A stretch of DNA of 64,000 nt from Spirochaetaceae bacterium UBA6076 (GCA_002428725.1 DIXQ01000021.1:27097-91096); one strand, 5' to 3'. Counted from the stretch's first letter, positions 41,719-52,129 are shown. Numbers and translations are program-made. Notes: generated by a model from the letters alone, not told the origin.

Positions 41719-42255
41719 ATGAGCAGGGCCTTTGTCGACGAGGACTCTGGCTCGGATGAAACCGATGACATGCACGAGATTCCCCTTCCGCTTGCCCCGG
41801 GGGTGAAAAATTACATGACCCCCGGAGGTGCGCTTCGAATGATGGAAGAGTTGCGTACCTTGATCGATGTCGAACGGCCCAGGGCGGCCGCGGCGCTGGC
41901 CGCTGCAGATGCCCAAGCCAAAGCAAGCCCGCTTAGAGAAATTTCCCGCATCGATAGACGAATATCTTACCTTAGCCGCATGAAGGCTTTTATGGAGGTA
42001 GTCCAGCCGCCTTCGAGCCTAGAGCGCATGGTCTTTGGCCTTGTTGCCCGGGTCGATGAAGGAAGCGATCAGGAAGTTTACTACCGCATCGTCGGTGTGG
42101 ACGAAAGCGATCCCGAGCGGGGCTGGGTAAGCTGGGCGAGCCCGGTGGCCAAGGCTTTGATCGGCAAATCGGTGGGCGATCTGGCGGTGGTTAAGCTTCC
42201 TCTTGGCGAGAGAAGAATGAAAATTATCGGTATCGAATACGCGAAGGAAGAATGA
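41719..42255 (+). CDS. GreA/GreB-family transcription elongation factor homologue
   Basis: The C-terminal sequence YYRIVGVDESDPERGWVSWASPVAKALIGKSVGDLAVVKLPLGERRMKIIGIEY matches the GreA/B C-terminal domain pattern. Confidence 0.7.
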   Translation: MSRAFVDEDSGSDETDDMHEIPLPLAPGVKNYMTPGGALRMMEELRTLIDVERPRAAAALAAADAQAKASPLREISRIDRRISYLSRMKAFMEVVQPPSSLERMVFGLVARVDEGSDQEVYYRIVGVDESDPERGWVSWASPVAKALIGKSVGDLAVVKLPLGERRMKIIGIEYAKEE

Positions 42256-43090
42256 AAGGAGCTCCAATTTCGACTGGGCCTCGAGGTATTCAAAGCGGTG
42301 GTAGTCCTTATGACGAACACCCAGATCCTTCCTGGGCTAGGCGGTCCTGGATTTCTCTGGATGGGGCTTGGACTTTTTCAAAATTAGGCGGGGCGAATAA
42401 GAACCGTGGGCTTACACAGCAAATACAAGTTCCTTTTCCGATTGGGAGCGAGCTGTCGGGAGTACGATCGAAGGATAAAGGATGCTGGACGTATTGCAGA
42501 AGATTCACTCTCCCCGATAAACCGAAAAGCCGCTGGATCCTCCACGTTGGAGCCTGCGATTACGATTTACCTGCCTTCGCGCAAAGCCTTTGAAGACTAT
42601 GAAGCCGAATTGCGTTCCCTCATCGCTAGGGACATGGCTCATCCCTCCTGCGTGATGAGGATTTTATTCAACGAAACCTGGGGTATCTGGGGCTTGTATG
42701 GCCAGGGCTTTCTATGAGGCTGTTAAGCGTAAGGATCCTGACGTCCTTCATAATTTTTCCGTTCTTAAGGTTCTGGCCTTCAACCTTTTTTATCAGGTGG
42801 CGACTAAAACCCGCAGTCTCTTCGTGAATCGCGATGCCAAGATCGATGGTACGCCACTCTTTTTAAGCGAATACGGGGGCTTTGGCTGGTACAAGGCTGA
42901 AGGGAATGCCGAAACCACCGAGCTTATCAAAGAATATACGAAGGATATTCTGGATTCAGGTCTTTTTTGCGGCTACTGCTACACCCAGCTCTACGACGTG
43001 GGTTCCGAGACCAACGGACTCTTGACCGCGGACCGCAGACCTAAGGTGGATACGGACGCGATGAGGAAAATCAACGATTATCGAGCATGA
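42252..43090 (+). pseudogene. Decayed family-2 glycoside hydrolase (beta-galactosidase/glucuronidase-like) gene
   Basis: GH2-like pieces sit in three different frames. Frame 0 carries ISLDGAWTF...QIQVPFP...ILHVGACDY (N-terminal sugar-binding domain). Frame 1 carries RDMAHPSCVMRILFNETWG (acid/base region). Frame 2 carries PLFLSEYGGFGW...NGLLTADRRPK (nucleophile region and C-terminus). Together they total about 280 codons, whereas GH2 enzymes are normally 600 aa or more. Confidence 0.6.
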
Positions 43091-43143: not shown

Positions 43144-43476
43144 CTATGCTGTAGGTTCTGATAATCCCTTAGTTCCAATAAGACGCAAATTAATATTTCT
43201 CCATCCCGGCACGTGCATGCTCATGAGTGCTTTGAAGAGCCGGCCATGAGCCGGAATGCGCAAATGAAGAAGCTCATGAACAATGACGTAGTTCTGGAAG
43301 GATTCATCTTGATCAATGAGATCTTCCGCTAGTGTAATTGTGCCACCGGTGGAGCAAGAGCCCCACTTATTTTTCATTTTCTGAATTCGGATGGCGTGCG
43401 GATTTACATGAAGCGTGACCGACCACTGCAGCACTCGGCGCTTAAGCTCTTGGGTGGGGTAGGATGCTCTGCTCAT
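43144..43476 (-). CDS. Short DUF45/YgjP-like (M48-type) zinc metallopeptidase
   Basis: The sequences [18 protein letters not shown] and [19 protein letters not shown] (HExxH) support the call. The start ATG 43476 forms an ATGA overlap with the hsdR stop. The longer listed ORF start lies inside hsdR. Confidence 0.7.
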
Positions 43477-46412
43477 TCCTGAATGTTCCCGAAAAGCGAC
43501 TCTATAGTCTTTTCCACGATGCGGGTGCGATCCTCGAGCCCAAGGTTGAGCAGGGGTCGGTATAAAGCCGATCGAAGGCGGCGGCCTTCCTCCTGGTTTT
43601 TCGCGGCGTTCGGATAGCGCGCTAAAAGATGTTCGGCGTCCCGCGCGAATTCCATGGGGGAGATGCCAGCTGAATACAGGACTGGATCCTCGTGTAGCGT
43701 CCAATACGCTGAAAAAGCACGTTCGCACAACCCGCTTTCGGATGCCGATTTGAGCGCGGCTTCCCGTTCATTCGAGAGTCCGACCAAGCCGTCGAGAGCC
43801 TGGAGGGCGTCGATCTGCTTGTCGGAGAGATCTTTAACGATACGTTCGGCCCTCTCCTTGAGAGGAAGGAGGACGCTCGCCATGCCTGGATTATCTTCGA
43901 GTTCCTTTTGAAGTCCCCTTACAAGATTGAACACCTTGCTCTCGTCGGATCCTTTTTCTTTTCTGAGCGCTTCGATGGTTTTCGCATCAAAGGTGACAGC
44001 CCGCGTCAGGCGCGAAAGACCCGATTGCAGCGCACTCGATTCGATGAGTCGCTGTGTTTTATGGGCCAGGTCGGCGATGTAGCCTGTTTTATCGGAATAC
44101 GCGTTGCGCGTTACGCTATAGAGAGCGGTCAGGATTTTATAGTCCTCGACGTAGTCCCGAAGCTGGGGATCGGGGGAGAGAATTTCCCAGAGATTTTCGA
44201 TCTCCTTGTATGCTTCGTAGAAAGCTTTTCGCGTTTCGCTCTCAAGAAACCTGCCAAAGACGATACGCTCCAATGACTCATCGGGATTGTCTTTATCTAT
44301 CTCGGCATGATCCAGCCAGGAATCCCTCGCCATGGCCATTTTCTTGCCAAAATCCTCCCTGAGCAGATCGATGTCTTCGATGGCTCCTCCGACATCTTCG
44401 GAGTCAAAGCTGAGGGCTTTCTTGAGTTCGCGCAGGACGCCGACGAAATCCACGATGAGGCCGACCTTCTTCTCGACATCGTCGGCGTCGACATAGGGGC
44501 GATTTGCGCGGGCGAGGGCCTGAAGCAGGACATGATCGCGCATCGGCTTATCCAGATAGAGACAGTAGAGGAGGGGAGCGTCAAAACCTGTGAGGAGCTT
44601 GTCGGTGACGATGAGTATTTTCGGATCTTCCTTCGGCTTCTTGAAGAGAGCCTTCACGGTCGCCTCGCGTTCGCTATCCAGTTGGAGGCTTGCCACGAGA
44701 GGCCTGTCGATCGCGTCGCTCGCGTTTTCAGAATAGACTGCCTCAGACCAGGCCGGCGGCAAGTACCTATCCAAAGCAATTTTGTATTTGGCGCATGCCT
44801 CGCGGTTTACCGCGATGAGAAAAGCCTTGTATCCCAGAGGGAGTACGTTTTCCCTGAAGTGATTCGAGACGAAGGCGGCCACTTTCTCGATCCGATCATC
44901 CGCCGACAGGAAGGTACGCAAACCGACAGCCCGGTCGAGGACTCGGTTGAGTTCGTCGATATCCGTGATGCCTTCTGATCCCGCGAGTTCGAAAAATTCC
45001 TTGTCTAGTCGATCGGAGGGGACCGTCATGTCGCTAGGCGCGAGAACGTGCTTAATGGGAAGGGTCGTGCCGTCGGCGATCGATTCGACGATCGGGTACT
45101 TGTCGAGGTAGCCGTGCTCGTCCTGGGTGCCGAAAATCTTGAACGTGCCTTCTCCCTGGCTGTTGTTGGCGATAGGCGTTCCCGTAAAACCAATGATCGT
45201 GGAATGAGGCAAAGCCGCCATCAGGTATGTTCCAAGGTCCTTCGCGACCGATCGGTGGGCTTCATCGATGAAGACGAACACGTTATCGCGCCCGCAAGCC
45301 GCCCCAGGTATGCCGTCGAATTTCTGGATCGTCGAGATGACAAGCCCGCGGAAATCAGCGTCGATCAATGCTTGAAGGTCAGCCTTGCTGCTCGCTCGCC
45401 TCGTCGCAATATCCTGATTTTGTAGCTCTCCAAGAAGGCGCTCCACCCAGCGCGACAACTGCCCTTCCAAATCGATTCGATCGACAATCGTGATGACGGT
45501 GGCGCTCGAGAATCGTTGTTTGTCCTCGAGGATGATCCTAGCGGCGGTCAGGAGTGTAAAGGTCTTACCTGAACCCTGGGTATGCCAAATCAGTCCTCTT
45601 GTCCGCCCTGGATCGGCGCAGCGTTCGACGATAGCGTCTATTGCGCGTCGCTGGTGCTGGCGAAGAATGGACTTTTTCGTTTCCCCATCCTGGACGTAGA
45701 AGAGAATCCAACGTTCGAGGCTGCGGAGAAAATCGGTAGGCTCAAAGAAAGATTGGACCGCGAAGCGATAGCTCTCGTCGGGCGCTTGCTTCCATCTCGC
45801 CATGTCCCGCCGCGTGACGTTCCAGGTGACGCCATACCAGTAGTCGAGCATGTGGGTCACGTTAAAGAGCTGGGTTGTGCCGAGAAGCTCTGGCGTCTCG
45901 ATTTCGTAACGGCGAAGCTGTTTGACGCCCCTCTCGAGCGCATCCCCGGTTTTTGGGTTCTTGTGCTCGACGATGCAGACCGGAATGCCGTTCACGATAA
46001 AGATGAGGTCCGCGCGATTGGCCTTCCGCGCGGGCGGCTTTATCTGCCACTCCCAGCTGCACTGGAGAATGTTATTGGCCGCCGTGCCGAAGTCGATGAG
46101 TCTGACAGTCCGCTTGCAGTTCTCGGTTTCATCGTACCACTGCCGCTCGCCACGAAGCCATGCCAAGGCCTCGCGGTTGCCCTCGATGCTCGCGGGCAGG
46201 GCTTCCAGCGTCTCGACGATGGATCGGATGGAATCTTCGGAAAGCCAGGGATTGAACTCCGCCAGCTTGGACGCCAATTCGCCCCTGAAGAGCATTCCCG
46301 TCGTACCGCCGCGTTTGGCCTTCGCCGATTCAGGATCAATCGGTGCCCATCCCACTTCGGCGGCGTGGCGGATCATGGGAAATTGGGCGATTGCCTTTTC
46401 GTCTATTTTCAT
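43473..46412 (-). CDS. hsdR: Type I restriction enzyme R subunit
   Basis: The N-terminal nuclease motif is [18 protein letters not shown]. The helicase motif I is [10 protein letters not shown] and the DEAH box is FIDEAHRS. Length is 979 aa. Confidence 0.9.
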
Positions 46413-46963
46413 TTTTTACCGGCTTCAAAATCTTTGCCATATGGTGGGATCGATTCGCAGACTTCCAGAGTCGCCCTGTTCTGAATCGCGAGGCGGGCGA
46501 GGGCTCGATCGATTTTCGCCTTCTGTCTTTCGCTCAGCTTACTCTTGTTTGAGCTATAGAGGCGAAGAAAGTTTTCGGGAATTGAGACAAGTTTCAGAAG
46601 ACTATTGTGCGCGCCCGAAGGGATGACGCCTTGCTCATAGGAGTTGATGGTGAGGTCGCCGATGTCTAGGAGCTTCGCGAAGCTCTTCTGGCTAACGTCA
46701 TAGCGGGCGCGCATGGCTACGAGTTCCGCCGGGCCGATGATCCCATGGCGGGCGCGGTATACGGCTCGTGCCGATTCTATCTCGGCATCCATCTGCTCGC
46801 CGGACGCGAAGTCTTTCCCACAGGTTTCGCAGACCGAGAACACCGAGTCGAACTCCACGTCCTCGCCCCGGATCTTCATGGTCTCCCGCTCGCAGACGAT
46901 CCTGATATTCCGCATGGCCTCGCAGTGGGGACATGCGTCGCGAATCACTTCAAGCACACTCAT
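46409..46963 (-). CDS. MqsA-family antitoxin-like protein (YgiT-type zinc ribbon plus XRE HTH) with a ~50-aa C-terminal extension
   Basis: The pairs CPHC...CETC form a zinc ribbon. They are followed by [56 protein letters not shown]. This parallels E. coli MqsA (CPVC..CVHC; LSLTQKEAAEIFGGGVNAFSRYEKGNAQPHPSTIKLLRVLDKHPELL). Confidence 0.7.
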
Positions 46964-46972
46964 GTATCCACC

Positions 46973-47299
46973 TCAATCATGATAGGAGAGCACTTTAAGC
47001 CAGTCGGAGCCGCCCATCTGGAAAAGCTTGAGCTTGATGTAGAAGCGCGTTCCGAACTCGTCGTAGAAGAAAAACCACAGGCTCCCTTCAGACCCATCGT
47101 CATCACGTTCTGGTCCTTTCCAATAATGCTCGGAGCCAAGTTTAGCCAGCCGTTTGCAGATACCTTCGAATGAAAGACCATAGTGTTCCATCGCGTCCCG
47201 GTTCTTATCTCGATCGACGAGGAGGACCAGCCGATGATTCTTGAGCACCTCCCGCTTCCGCATCAGGAATACCTGGAGTCCCAAACCGGCGTCTGGCAC
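46973..47299 (-). CDS. MqsR-like mRNA interferase toxin candidate
   Basis: About 109 aa. DAMEHYGLSFEGICKRLAKLGSEHYWKG and YIKLKLF...LKVLSYH parallel E. coli MqsR ADELGLDFDGMCNVIIGLSESDFYKSM and YLKITVI..LIVSFKEK. The gene lies 9 nt upstream of the MqsA-like gene. I chose the start at the GTG 7 nt after AGGAGG (47307-47312); 47302 and 47335 are alternatives. Confidence 0.55.
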   Translation of the reverse strand: MPDAGLGLQVFLMRKREVLKNHRLVLLVDRDKNRDAMEHYGLSFEGICKRLAKLGSEHYWKGPERDDDGSEGSLWFFFYDEFGTRFYIKLKLFQMGGSDWLKVLSYHD

Positions 47300-47363
47300 C
47301 ACTATACCTCCTATTTTGGTATCAATCAATACCAAAACACAGTCACTTTTTAGGACTGCCCAC

Positions 47364-48545
47364 CTAATCCGCGGCTTTCCCGATAGCCGGTAAATCCAAG
47401 TCCGCGATCCGGATCTCCCCTGTCATCAGTTTATGAAGGAGGCTCTTGAAGAGTTCCTCGAGGAGGGTCTTCTTTTTCTTGTGCAGCTCGATCTTGCGGT
47501 CTATGGTGTCGAGGATCTCGACGGTTTCAAGCTGTTCGGGGAGGGAAGGTATAGCGACTAACCAAGGCGTTAAAAACTGAATATTTATATTTTTCTGTGT
47601 TCCCTTAGGAGCACGTCTATCCATTTCTGATTGCTGTGTTTGTAGGAAGTATTCAAGATATCTCGCATCTATCTCGGTTTGTGGGGTAATTGCAATTATA
47701 CTATCAGGGCAAGCACTATCGAATCCCAGAATTCCTGTGTAGCCGATATTGGCTGCAATGGTTATCAAGATGGTTCCTTTGGGGAATACGCGACTGATAG
47801 CCACACCTTCTTCGTTAAGGCTTTGAGTATAAGTATTTATCTTGCCCCCGGATTTAACAACATCACCGGTCTGGACAAATGGGATCTTTCCACCATAGAA
47901 GCGAGGTTCATTTCGCGGTCTATGAAGAAAACGACCTCGTTCAAGCAATGCTATACTTCCAAGAGGTAACACCTTCCAATTCTCCGGCACTAGCCCAATT
48001 TCTGTCTCCTTCTGAGCCTTGTTGTGGAGGCCTCGCGTGAAGAGTTCGCGCATCGCGGCGCGCTTGAGGGCAGTCGTGAGATCACAAGTCCGTTGTTCAC
48101 CATCTATATGCGACTCAATTATTGCTAGGATTTTTCCAATCAATTCCTGTTCCTCTTTCGGGGGGATTGGAATTTCTCGTTCCTTAAGAATGGATAAGTG
48201 GCGGTTGTAGCCTCGGCTTTCAATATCAAGGGCTTTACAGGCGAAGTAGAAGAAATGTGGATCAAAACGATCATCAGGGTAGAGTATTTGGGTACCATCT
48301 GCGCCGCGCACAAATGGGAAATCGATGTATTTTAAAATCCGAGTGTGGTCACCAAAGATAATTAACGGTAAAGGTGAATCAATAAGGCCGTTACGATTAT
48401 CTGTCCATCCTGCTATGAGATCTCGACCTTGGTCAATAATCGGAAAAGCACCACTAATTTTATAGTCTTTTGTCTGTAATTTGTTTGTCGGTAGTTGTAG
48501 AGGTTTAAGGCAAGAAGCGACTGAGACGGTCTCCCATTTGATCAT
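47364..48545 (-). CDS. hsdS: Type I restriction enzyme S (specificity) subunit
   Basis: Two target-recognition halves are separated by the conserved helix ALKRAAMRELFTRGL. The protein ends with LLEELFKSLLHKLMTGEIRI. The start lies 2 nt after the hsdM stop. Confidence 0.85.
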   Translation of the reverse strand: MIKWETVSVASCLKPLQLPTNKLQTKDYKISGAFPIIDQGRDLIAGWTDNRNGLIDSPLPLIIFGDHTRILKYIDFPFVRGADGTQILYPDDRFDPHFFYFACKALDIESRGYNRHLSILKEREIPIPPKEEQELIGKILAIIESHIDGEQRTCDLTTALKRAAMRELFTRGLHNKAQKETEIGLVPENWKVLPLGSIALLERGRFLHRPRNEPRFYGGKIPFVQTGDVVKSGGKINTYTQSLNEEGVAISRVFPKGTILITIAANIGYTGILGFDSACPDSIIAITPQTEIDARYLEYFLQTQQSEMDRRAPKGTQKNINIQFLTPWLVAIPSLPEQLETVEILDTIDRKIELHKKKKTLLEELFKSLLHKLMTGEIRIADLDLPAIGKAAD

Positions 48546-48547
48546 TT

Positions 48548-50392
<1,845 letters not shown>

Positions 50393-50398
50393 ATTTGC

Positions 50399-50427
50399 AA
50401 TATATGTTATAATAATATCTATGTCAA
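50399..50427 (-). promoter_or_regulatory. Near-consensus sigma70-type promoter abutting the hsdM start codon (leaderless configuration)
   Basis: Minus strand reads TTGACA (50427-50422), a 17-nt spacer, TATATT (50404-50399), GCAAAT, then ATG (50392). There is no Shine-Dalgarno sequence. Confidence 0.5.
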
Positions 50428-50442
50428 TCGTATTTTAAGCTA

Positions 50443-51018
50443 TCAGTTTTGGTTTTCGAAGTAGAGATTGTATTTTTTCCAGAAATACTTGGGATTAGGA
50501 ACATCGTCTCGGCCTTCGATGACAGCGACGGCGTCGCGGATCTCCTGTAGGTTTGCCCGACCCTCGTCGTACATGAGCTTGAGAAGATCGATGGTGCTTG
50601 TGACGGGAATGTCGAATTCAGCCGCCAACGATGTCATCGGTCCATCGTCTGTGACCACCACCGCCCCAAAGGCGAGGGCATAAACTAGACAGAAATTATC
50701 CACGGGCGAGGTGCTGAGCAGGAAATCTTGAGCCGTTTCTCTAATATATTCGAGGTTTGTCTCTATTTCCCTGCGCTTTTCCTGGCAAACGCGGAGATAG
50801 TGGCTGCGATCTTGCGAATAGGTTTCTGAACTCGCCCAATGGAATTTGCTCGATAGTCGGGAATTGCGCCTGAGTTCATGATCAAGATCAGGAACGACAC
50901 GGAGCCTGCAAGGTGGAGATCCGAAAACAGTCGCGATTATCGGGTGAAAGGAGTCCGCCACCCTGAGATAGGTGTTGGTATCGAGCAGAAACAGGCGCTC
51001 ATCGCCGGACGAGGGCAT
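50443..51018 (-). CDS. PIN-domain nuclease candidate
   Basis: Four spaced acidic positions fit the PIN pattern: LFLLDTNTY, DLDHELRR, SPVDNFCL and VVVTDDGPM. I took the start as Met12; it overlaps the upstream gene by about 20 nt. Confidence 0.6.
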   Translation of the reverse strand: MPSSGDERLFLLDTNTYLRVADSFHPIIATVFGSPPCRLRVVPDLDHELRRNSRLSSKFHWASSETYSQDRSHYLRVCQEKRREIETNLEYIRETAQDFLLSTSPVDNFCLVYALAFGAVVVTDDGPMTSLAAEFDIPVTSTIDLLKLMYDEGRANLQEIRDAVAVIEGRDDVPNPKYFWKKYNLYFENQN

Positions 51019-52129
51019 CGAGGATCGCCTTCGCGTCGGCGGGGCCGACACCGAGACTGGCCGCGACTATACCTTCCGATTCCCCATGCTCCGCTACGTA
51101 GGAGCGAAGGGCTGAATAGAATGGGCTCTTGAAGATTTCTTCCGATATGCGGATCAGATCGATTGCGTTCGGAGTATCCGAAAAAAAGATGCCTGAACTT
51201 ACTAGGCCATATTCTTTATTAAAATTAGTGTTGGCACCAAAAATCGCCTTGCCTAAGAGTTCTTCGCCTCCTCGCGAATGAGCGATATAATCTATTCGCT
51301 TCGCAATAGTAACGGGCGATACGATAAGTTCCCGCGCGACAGCGAGGACACGAAGTATTCGCGCGCCCATATCGGGGATCTCTGAAAGTCTATCAAATTC
51401 CTCGATAGCAATATTCTCGGGAACGAGTATAGCGGAGGCAAACGCGTCAGAGAACTTTTCCGCGTCTGTGCTATTGAGTAGCCCAGATGTCTTCGAATGA
51501 CCGAGCTCGTGGAGCATCCAGAACTTGAAATCGAACAGCTTGGTGTCCAGATTTAGATAGACGAGCGTAGTCTGAGAGTCCGGCAGATAGACGTGGAGAG
51601 CGTTGTCGAGGCTGTCTTTTTCGCCCCAGAGTACGGGGACCAGAACCGTCTTGAGCTCGCCGAAAAGACCAATGATGTCCTCGAAATGTACCTGTTTTCC
51701 GACGCAGCCCATGGCAGCCCGGGTTTCCAGGGCGGCTTCTTCTACGTAGGCCGCTTCGACGCGCGGCGATATAAGGCGAGCTGGCGCGCTAAGACGACCG
51801 AAGGGGAGGTATGGAACTAGAAGGTTAGCGGCCTTTCCCATACCCTTGGCACGTTTCTCGTCCTCAGCCTTCACCTTCGCGTTTCCGTGTTTTCTGTAAG
51901 CTACGATAGGCTCCGCGATTCCACTACTTGAAACGAGCTCCGAATAGCTAAGGGTGAGGAGCTTGCCAAGGCGTAGCAACAGAGCAGGGCGGGGGAATTT
52001 CTTACCCTTGAGCCATTCTGAAACAATGGTTTTCGATACGCCTAGCGAAGCGGCAATAGCGGCTGCATTCAGCCCCAATTCCTGCATAGCCTGCTCTATT
52101 CGATCAAGGGAAAGTCGTTTGTCTGCCAC
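50999..52129 (-). CDS. XRE-family HTH fused to an ImmA/IrrE (COG2856-type) zinc metallopeptidase domain
   Basis: The N-terminal HTH is LGLNAAAIAASLGVSKTIVSEWLKGKKFP. The HExxH motif is in FWMLHELGHS, near residue 215. The start is GTG at 52129. Confidence 0.7.
   Translation of the reverse strand: MADKRLSLDRIEQAMQELGLNAAAIAASLGVSKTIVSEWLKGKKFPRPALLLRLGKLLTLSYSELVSSSGIAEPIVAYRKHGNAKVKAEDEKRAKGMGKAANLLVPYLPFGRLSAPARLISPRVEAAYVEEAALETRAAMGCVGKQVHFEDIIGLFGELKTVLVPVLWGEKDSLDNALHVYLPDSQTTLVYLNLDTKLFDFKFWMLHELGHSKTSGLLNSTDAEKFSDAFASAILVPENIAIEEFDRLSEIPDMGARILRVLAVARELIVSPVTIAKRIDYIAHSRGGEELLGKAIFGANTNFNKEYGLVSSGIFFSDTPNAIDLIRISEEIFKSPFYSALRSYVAEHGESEGIVAASLGVGPADAKAILDALVRR

Follow-up and report, generated by a model that had tools for sequence, protein, structure and literature searches.

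A probable MqsR/MqsA-type toxin–antitoxin module lodged between hsdS and hsdR within a spirochaete Type I restriction–modification operon

Main

What are two small genes doing between the specificity and restriction genes of a Type I restriction–modification (R–M) operon? In the classical prr locus this position, between hsdS and hsdR, is occupied by prrC. We address the question for a 64,000-nt stretch of the genome of Spirochaetaceae bacterium UBA6076 (GCA_002428725.1 DIXQ01000021.1:27097-91096; hereafter the window), in which a minus-strand, co-directional block comprises an hsdM gene fused to a helix–turn–helix (HTH) domain, hsdS, a 108-aa open reading frame (ORF), a 184-aa ORF, hsdR and a short YgjP-like peptidase gene. 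An initial annotation had proposed that the two ORFs form an MqsR/MqsA-like toxin–antitoxin pair that takes the place of the PrrC anticodon nuclease. Both ORFs are present on the minus strand, between hsdS and hsdR, at the coordinates that it gave (Table 1).

We conclude that the pair is probably a self-contained type II module of the MqsR/MqsA–PanA lineage, carried as embedded cargo in the hsdS–hsdR slot of a serS-adjacent spirochaete defence island. Family and fold matches of both proteins, together with purifying selection at a dN/dS of ~0.1, indicate a genuine and intact MqsR/MqsA-type toxin–antitoxin pair that belongs to a divergent branch. In what follows, L-numbers denote loci of relatives and P-numbers denote homologous proteins.

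The toxin

The start of the toxin gene bears on the length of the protein and on the signals that precede it. We prefer GTG 47299 over ATG 47263 or TTG 47335, because it is preceded by a Shine–Dalgarno (SD) sequence, GGAGG (47311-47307), 7 nt upstream; because it opens a conserved N terminus (VPDAxLGLQvFL, the first 12 residues) that is kept in nine of ten aligned homologues, P0010 being the one without it; and because gene calls made independently for this contig likewise arrive at a 108-aa toxin with that start. The ORF proposed at first therefore stands, with a length of 108 aa where about 109 aa had been given.

The relationship to MqsR emerges most clearly from the wider family. An exhaustive profile search gathered 599 cluster representatives at E<=1e-3, and 125 of them were aligned for a family profile. 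Matches to the Pfam model PF15723 (MqsR_toxin) at E<=1e-3 are found for 81 of these 125 representatives (best 1.6e-9), and hhalign relates the 125-member profile to Escherichia coli MqsR with 91.4% probability (E 9e-7). For the AlphaFold2 (AF2) model of the window toxin (pLDDT 90.1), Foldseek ranks two MqsR chains of the Protein Data Bank (PDB), 3HI2_D and 3HI2_B, highest, with a TMq of 0.65, a TMt of 0.75/0.71, prob 1.00 and an rmsd of 2.7-3.1 A. As modelled, the toxin has the RelE/YoeB-like alpha/beta fold of MqsR. The profile and fold comparisons bear out the MqsR-like identity that had been suggested, and we consider the 108-aa protein a remote MqsR relative of a divergent branch and a putative RNase.

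Mutation of K56, Q68, Y81 or K96 abolishes the toxicity of E. coli MqsR (PMC2791442). The hhalign alignment pairs K61, Y87 and H107 of the window toxin with K56, Y81 and K96, and leaves Q68 in a gap. Across the 125 relatives Y87 is nearly invariant, K89 and H107 are invariant, and K61 is kept only in the close clade. Comparison of the toxin with its relatives gives a pN of 0.17-0.21 and a pS of 0.70-0.86, and purifying selection is seen in five of six embedded lineages. A tblastn search with the toxin found no match in plasmids. Additionally, neither ORF matches a PrrC-type ABC-ATPase or anticodon nuclease domain in Pfam, NCBIfam or PADLOC.

The antitoxin

The 184-aa protein passes the NCBIfam model TIGR03830 (MqsA family) with 77.6 bits against a cut-off of 61.8, and the top Foldseek match of its AF2 model (pLDDT 87.5) is MqsA 3GN5 (E 4e-5). 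A profile of antitoxin homologues likewise recovers E. coli MqsA from the PDB, as 3GN5 (E 0.0024) and 2KZ8, together with HigA2. With these matches the earlier description of a 184-aa, MqsA-like zinc-ribbon/HTH antitoxin is confirmed. The Pfam model PF15731 gives 26.1 bits, below its 30-bit cut-off; relatives in L018-L020, L022, L024, L027, L030 and L032 exceed 30 bits and that in L021 reaches 29.2. In the model, beta strands lie within residues 2-45 of the zinc-binding domain (ZBD), followed by the HTH, two further helices and a disordered tail (Table 1).

The TIGR03830 match stops at residue 128 of 184, so the protein does extend beyond MqsA at its C terminus, as had been noted. A reading of the extension as an R–M-specific interaction surface fares less well. 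Two helices modelled with confidence (residues 129-157; motif NF.RLY..NK..LS.RQ.AKI) are kept in aligned relatives, including those fused to a Panacea or an MNT nucleotidyltransferase domain. The tail evolves under relaxed constraint (dN/dS ~0.45-0.5, against ~0.1 for the antitoxin overall) and in protein alignments coincides with the linker that stands ahead of the C-terminal domain in relatives. Protein alignment was used here because a DNA-level comparison with L013 was too diverged to inform on a Panacea deletion junction. Thus, the extension consists of two conserved helices of inherited architecture and a leftover Panacea linker, and is not an R–M-specific surface.

The Panacea domain itself (PF13274, SocA/Panacea) has no match in the window antitoxin. 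It is present in the L013-L015 orthologue, likewise embedded (344 aa; 66 bits in L013), in L012/P0022 and in six distant relatives, L018-L022 and L030 (332-359 aa; 58-77 bits). These six, which are free-standing or otherwise embedded and share 43-55% identity or lower, carry Panacea after the same linker, and so does the embedded L013. In L009-L011 an MNT domain takes Panacea's position (P0021, 270 aa) and a HepT-like gene comes next. Since Panacea is found in every outgroup, the simplest reading of the 184-aa form is as a Panacea-less derivative of a ZBD–HTH–Panacea (PanA) ancestor. In experimentally studied MqsR:PanA systems the ZBD is by itself enough to neutralise the toxin; Panacea, a proposed sensor, is dispensable for neutralisation (PMC10440598). 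A single orthologous locus in which the same antitoxin core occurs with Panacea, with an MNT domain that pairs with HepT, or with neither thus provides a series for studying what Panacea contributes.

In L009:8001-9282, and also in L010 and L011, MNT is joined to an antitoxin core made up of zinc domain, HTH and two helices, and the HepT-like gene overlaps the gene for this fusion. We suggest that P0021 would act as antitoxin for two toxins, one MqsR-like and one HepT. The slot in these loci also holds a DUF4917 gene (PADLOC candidate PDC-S21, E 2e-118) and a 172-aa ORF.

Relatives and genomic context

Close homologues are few, amounting to 10 toxins and 16 antitoxins. A genome scan with the antitoxin alignment returned 13 loci, all in Spirochaetota, and scanning metagenomes with the alignment of close toxins contributed three further loci only. 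At an antitoxin identity of at least ~57%, the same serS-adjacent Type I locus recurs with the pair in the hsdS–hsdR slot (L001-L004, L009-L011 and L013-L016). L012 is a decayed version of this embedded locus, and in L005-L008/L017 the R–M genes are lost and the toxin is broken, its 3' end forming a fusion with the antitoxin ORF.

Relatives at a greater distance (32-55% identity) show the module in other company, and none of them lies within a Type I R–M operon. In L018 (1371-12815) an MqsR:PanA pair stands between an SbcCD-like pair and Wadjet JetA/JetC, and in L030 (114-9779) a pair is flanked by genes for a DUF1156 methyltransferase and for a HEPN_Swt1-DUF499 ATPase, downstream of AAA_21 and RloB. 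In L027 the module comes after a PLD-SNF2 helicase and a methylase of Eco57I type; in L024 an Eco57I-type methylase and also a HATPase protein are close by; and in L032 the contig is viral and the gene for a large terminase is nearby. Thus, the lineage is a habitual resident of varied defence islands and operons.

Three of these loci, which hold the most distant relatives, share a further feature. Directly after a Panacea-less antitoxin of 233-239 aa, L024 (7702-8133), L027 (7717-8148) and L032 (5702-6169) carry a positionally conserved ORF of 143-155 aa, for which no significant family match was found. These loci may represent a three-gene variant.

The palindrome and promoter signals

Upstream of the toxin gene lies a perfect palindrome, TTTTGGTAT-N6-ATACCAAAA, which ends 2 nt before the toxin ribosome-binding site (RBS) and is unique within the window. 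It is unchanged in six embedded loci while the flanking intergenic DNA diverges, it is kept in the decayed loci L005-L008/L017, and it is constant within a cassette whose identity between conspecific strains is only 50-70%. The core GGTAT-N6-ATACC also precedes the toxin in free-standing relatives (L018-L021, L024, L025, L027 and L028). The arms of the palindrome never vary and the loop does, which favours recognition by a protein over a plain RNA hairpin. MqsA is known to bind palindromes of its own promoter through an HTH dimer (PMC2791442), and we regard the element as a putative operator for the HTH dimer of the antitoxin.

A -10-like box (TATATT, TAATAT or TATTTT) lies right next to the palindrome in most free-standing loci; where hsdS directly precedes the copy, the box has the sequence TGTTTT, TTTTTT or GTTTTG. 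A second candidate, TTGATT-17-TATAGT at 47329-47301 (9/12), was rejected as a promoter of the pair, because its -10 element ends 2 nt before the conserved GTG and the transcript would omit the conserved N-terminal codons.

Proposed function

We propose that the 108-aa protein would act as an endoribonuclease of the RelE/MqsR fold, and that the four-cysteine zinc domain at the N terminus of the antitoxin would neutralise it by binding. The antitoxin would dimerise through its XRE-type HTH, bind GGTAT-N6-ATACC upstream of the toxin RBS and thereby autoregulate the module. Depletion of the antitoxin, for example when a phage shuts off host expression, could free the toxin and lead to growth arrest or abortive infection, providing a second line behind restriction. 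An ancestral ZBD–HTH–Panacea antitoxin would have lost Panacea in the window lineage, leaving the helices, the linker and a stop codon that abuts hsdR.

Several observations weigh against this interpretation. The window toxin scores 22.6-23.1 bits against PF15723 (E 1e-4) and does not reach the gathering score of 26.2, so that the profile match asked for at 46973-47299 lies below the Pfam cut-off. Searches of PDB sequences with profile hidden Markov models (HMMs) of the toxin family found no entry, MqsR included, and it took hhalign and fold comparison to make the connection. Nothing in the toxin aligns to Q68, and K96 is replaced by His, so that RNase activity and specificity are only putative. 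In L002-L004 the toxin gene (L002:7660-7995) lacks one A in a run, GAAAAAAAT, in three independent assemblies, with the antitoxin and hsdR intact. The toxin is thus dispensable at least there. The frameshift may reflect true inactivation, phase variation at the homopolymer or a sequencing artefact common to the assemblies.

Two further points concern regulation and role. The -10-like box lacks a conserved A (TGTTTT against TATATT) in five of six embedded lineages compared, and these five are all the lineages with hsdS directly upstream. Degeneracy of the box in copies right behind hsdS is only a hint, but the embedded module may rely on read-through from the hsd promoter. Additionally, toxin activity, neutralisation and operator binding are predictions from sequence and family knowledge, and it is genomic context alone that suggests a role in defence.

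On another view the pair gives no phage defence, stabilises itself and incidentally the hsd operon, and arrived by recombination at a hotspot. We consider this unlikely. The slot is indeed a recombination hotspot with varied cargo (PMC12255303), the module decays alongside lost R–M genes in L005-L008 and L012, and the toxin frameshift of L002-L004 fits this view. However, the module recurs beside unrelated defence systems across Spirochaetota, it has persisted for long at a dN/dS of ~0.1, and related PanAT and MqsR systems have been discussed as defence-linked (PMC10440598). Addiction and abortive infection cannot be separated by sequence alone.

The overlap with hsdR

The initial annotation placed a shared ATGA at 46409-46412, and this is exactly what the window contains: the antitoxin TGA (46411-46409) overlaps the hsdR ATG (46412-46410), and hsdR has no obvious SD. 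The same 4-nt overlap of antitoxin and hsdR occurs in L001, L002 and L016. In L009 hsdR overlaps the HepT gene by 4 nt, and in L013 an 11-nt gap separates it from the Panacea-bearing antitoxin. Across the versions of the slot that we compared, hsdR overlaps the preceding gene, whichever it is, in five of six. The overlap reflects operon compaction and is no peculiarity of this antitoxin. Translation of HsdR probably depends on ribosomes finishing the upstream gene, so that the proposed tie between HsdR synthesis and antitoxin translation is likely as far as coupling goes; the HepT overlap of L009 and the gap of L013 argue against its being specific to the antitoxin.

A missing SD and an overlapping stop codon could also mean that the antitoxin serves mainly as a controller-protein-like regulator of hsdR, acting through the palindrome and translational coupling to set the ratio of HsdR to HsdMS, with the toxin secondary or decaying. 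The constancy of the palindrome even beside a seemingly degenerate -10-like box would fit this idea, as would the intact antitoxin of loci whose toxin is frameshifted (L002-L004) or broken (L005-L008), and the XRE-type controller C.Kpn2I (4YBA) is among the weaker fold matches of the antitoxin (prob 0.97-0.98). Yet orphan antitoxins often outlast their toxins, and the toxin remains under purifying selection in all but one of the six embedded lineages. Additionally, neither L013 nor L009 couples an antitoxin stop to hsdR, and free-standing modules, which have no hsdR downstream, conserve the palindrome just as well. We therefore give a primary role as an hsdR controller little credence.

Cassette exchange

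Comparison with L001, whose genome is nearly identical to the window here, reveals how the embedded module varies between close relatives. Protein identity between the window and L001 is 99% for SerS, 98% for HsdR and 94% for HsdM, and falls to 37% for HsdS and 67% for the toxin. At the DNA level the two are 96-100% identical on both sides of an interval, from ~48677 to ~46700, in which identity drops to 50-75%. This interval spans hsdS, the toxin gene and the zinc-binding half of the antitoxin gene, and one of its breakpoints lies inside the conserved HTH-coding region of the antitoxin. Thus, the toxin and its predicted neutralising domain have been swapped together with the specificity subunit, and we interpret the pattern as an allelic cassette exchange that links R–M specificity to the toxin:ZBD pair. 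The constant operator and the exchange of hsdS, toxin and ZBD offer testable handles on the regulation and shuffling of embedded defence modules.

The co-exchange also speaks for a PrrC-like guard, in which the pair would monitor the Type I enzyme, through the antitoxin tail or translational coupling, and the RNase would be freed when Ocr, ArdA or a Stp-like protein blocks R–M. The pair sits in the same slot as prrC and is co-oriented with hsdR, which it overlaps by 4 nt; the arrangement has lasted in several lineages with saturated synonymous sites; and effectors that sense R–M inhibition exist, for example PrrC and Ronin (bioRxiv 10.1101/2023.04.06.535777). Nevertheless, the toxin has its own antitoxin and operator, and the module also occurs outside Type I R–M. 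Of the candidate links, the tail is disordered, little constrained and a leftover Panacea linker, and the hsdR overlap is generic to any upstream gene. In L002-L004, moreover, the toxin is frameshifted while the R–M genes are intact. The PrrC analogy drawn at the outset thus proves to be one of position only, since a dedicated antitoxin and operator both occur in free-standing copies or unrelated operons too (L018-L021, L024, L025, L027 and L028). Own antitoxin, own operator, free-standing occurrence and the generic overlap leave a guard function unsupported, and we judge it very improbable.

There is likewise only a slim chance that the module is wired into restriction in another manner, with the palindrome-bound antitoxin and stop–start coupling gating HsdR, and with loss of the antitoxin, when a phage takes over or counters restriction, both freeing the RNase and altering the supply of restriction subunits. 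If this were true, the co-exchange of hsdS, toxin and zinc domain would reflect selection on their linkage, and loss of Panacea, the proposed sensor, would mean that sensing had been handed over to the R–M context.

Known systems

A self-contained module, the reading that we prefer, has close parallels among described systems. MqsR:PanA with a ZBD–HTH–Panacea architecture has been experimentally validated, with examples from Bacillus fungorum and Levilactobacillus rossiae (Ernits et al. 2023, PMC10440598; Kurata et al. 2022, PMC8832971), and of the toxin partners known for PanA, MqsR-like domains are the most frequent (PMC8832971). The window pair resembles MqsR:PanA in having the toxin gene first, an MqsR fold and an antitoxin with a four-Cys zinc domain and an XRE-HTH; L013-L015, in the same slot, and the free-standing L018-L022 and L030 have the exact ZBD–HTH–Panacea architecture. 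It differs in that its antitoxin lacks Panacea and ends in a 22-residue disordered linker, its toxin is divergent and below the Pfam threshold, and the module lies inside a Type I R–M operon.

With E. coli MqsR/MqsA (3HI2, 3GN5) the pair shares both folds, the gene order, the zinc ligands, the HTH-XRE domain, a palindrome upstream of the toxin and residues that align to K56 and Y81. Identity in structural alignments is only 16-18%, the window toxin has no counterpart of Q68 and has His for K96, and the antitoxin has two extra C-terminal helices and a tail.

A parallel in position is the DarTG2 toxin–antitoxin pair, which lies between hsdS and hsdR in enteropathogenic E. coli (EPEC) at a likely recombination hotspot for defence systems (PMC12255303). 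Both cases involve a full toxin–antitoxin pair in the same slot of a defence island, with a small HTH regulator function associated. However, the toxin there is a DNA ADP-ribosyltransferase and here a putative RNase, and a separate upstream repressor, RptR, contrasts with HTH domains that here are fused to HsdM and contained in the antitoxin.

Type I R–M systems often hold embedded genes, and PrrC occurs in embedded form almost without exception (bioRxiv 10.1101/2024.01.29.577857). This anticodon nuclease of the ABC-ATPase type has no antitoxin; the R–M complex holds it latent, and T4 Stp activates it (PMC12707154). The window pair shares with PrrC of EcoprrI the hsdS–hsdR position and an RNA-targeting effector, putative in our case, but has no homology to it, and the window toxin has its own antitoxin.

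Among publications whose full text matched MqsR, hsdR and Type I restriction, titles and abstracts mention no MqsR-type pair in the hsdS–hsdR slot. Our analysis thus adds a predicted RNase toxin–antitoxin pair of MqsR type to the cargo of this slot in Type I R–M operons. It is no new class of mechanism, as both a toxin–antitoxin pair in the same slot (DarTG2) and MqsR:PanA have already been published.

Features of the locus

Table 1. Coordinates of the module, the surrounding operon and associated signals in the window
Feature	Position	Strand	Description
hsdM	48548..50392	-	614 aa; N6_Mtase 3.9e-73, HsdM_N, N-terminal HTH_3 8.6e-8
hsdS	47364..48545	-	393 aa; Methylase_S, two stretches, E 5e-29; starts 2 nt after hsdM
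Toxin gene	46973..47299	-	108 aa; candidate endoribonuclease, remote MqsR family (RelE/YoeB fold); GTG start
Antitoxin gene	46409..46963	-	184 aa; MqsA-family zinc-ribbon/HTH
Antitoxin zinc-binding domain	residues 1-54 (46963-46802)	-	C11-x2-C14, C45-x2-C48
Antitoxin helix and XRE-HTH	residues 55-128 (46801-46580)	-	AF2 HTH helices 78-126
Antitoxin two extra helices	residues 129-160 (46579-46484)	-	AF2 helices 129-142, 145-157
Antitoxin disordered tail	residues 161-184 (46483-46412)	-	residues 163-184 with pLDDT below 50, about 40
hsdR	43473..46412	-	979 aa, intact; TIGR00348 418.7 bits; HSDR_N, SWI2_SNF2/ResIII, T1R_D3-like domains
YgjP-like metallopeptidase	43144..43476	-	110 aa; PF01863 2.2e-25, only C-terminal HExxH half of model
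Putative operator palindrome	47314..47337	strand-neutral	9-nt arms, 100% complementary
Promoter-like site	50399..50427	-	TTGACA-17-TATATT; consensus match only
ATGA overlap, antitoxin stop/hsdR start	46409..46412	-	read from sequence
Variable cassette	46700..48677	-	hsdS, operator, toxin and zinc-binding half of antitoxin

The hsdS and toxin genes are separated by 64 nt, and the toxin gene precedes the antitoxin gene by 9 nt. Within the block from hsdM to the peptidase gene the coding strand shows no terminator-like site, and an Rfam scan of the entire window returned no match. The strongest promoter-like site in this region stops 6 nt short of the hsdM ATG, which has no SD, and is probably the operon promoter. 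This spacing, the missing SD and the HTH of HsdM suggest a leaderless and possibly self-regulated hsdMS transcript.

The HTH of HsdM is an N-terminal, XRE-type domain (PF01381, 8.6e-8; residues ~8-57; 50392..50183, minus strand). The fusion also occurs in relatives for which hsdM Pfam domains were recorded, namely L002, L009-L011, L013 and L014. That this domain is a copy of the antitoxin HTH was rejected, as BLASTP finds no similarity between the two, though both match generic XRE models.

At the other end of the operon, the ATG of the YgjP-like peptidase gene overlaps the hsdR stop as ATGA, in the same manner as antitoxin and hsdR. The gene is kept downstream of hsdR in L001, L002 and L009, and a remnant persists in L005-L008, where the R–M genes are gone.

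Between serS and hsdM lies a 376-aa protein with HTH_3 and Peptidase_M78 (ImmA/IrrE) domains (52129..50999, minus strand), which matches RmrA, the RosmerTA antitoxin, in PADLOC (E 5e-12). Its overlapping 202-aa partner (51051..50443, minus strand) has no match in Pfam, NCBIfam or PADLOC. L001 has this RmrA-like pair as well, L002 lacks it and L009 carries a ParE pair in its place, and the serS–hsdM interval looks like a second variable defence slot of the same island. Beyond the peptidase gene, three short overlapping plus-strand ORFs (42252..43090) correspond to a single 266-aa gene in L001 with a faint match to the C-terminal part of glycoside hydrolase family 2, and they are probably a fragmented pseudogene flanking the island.

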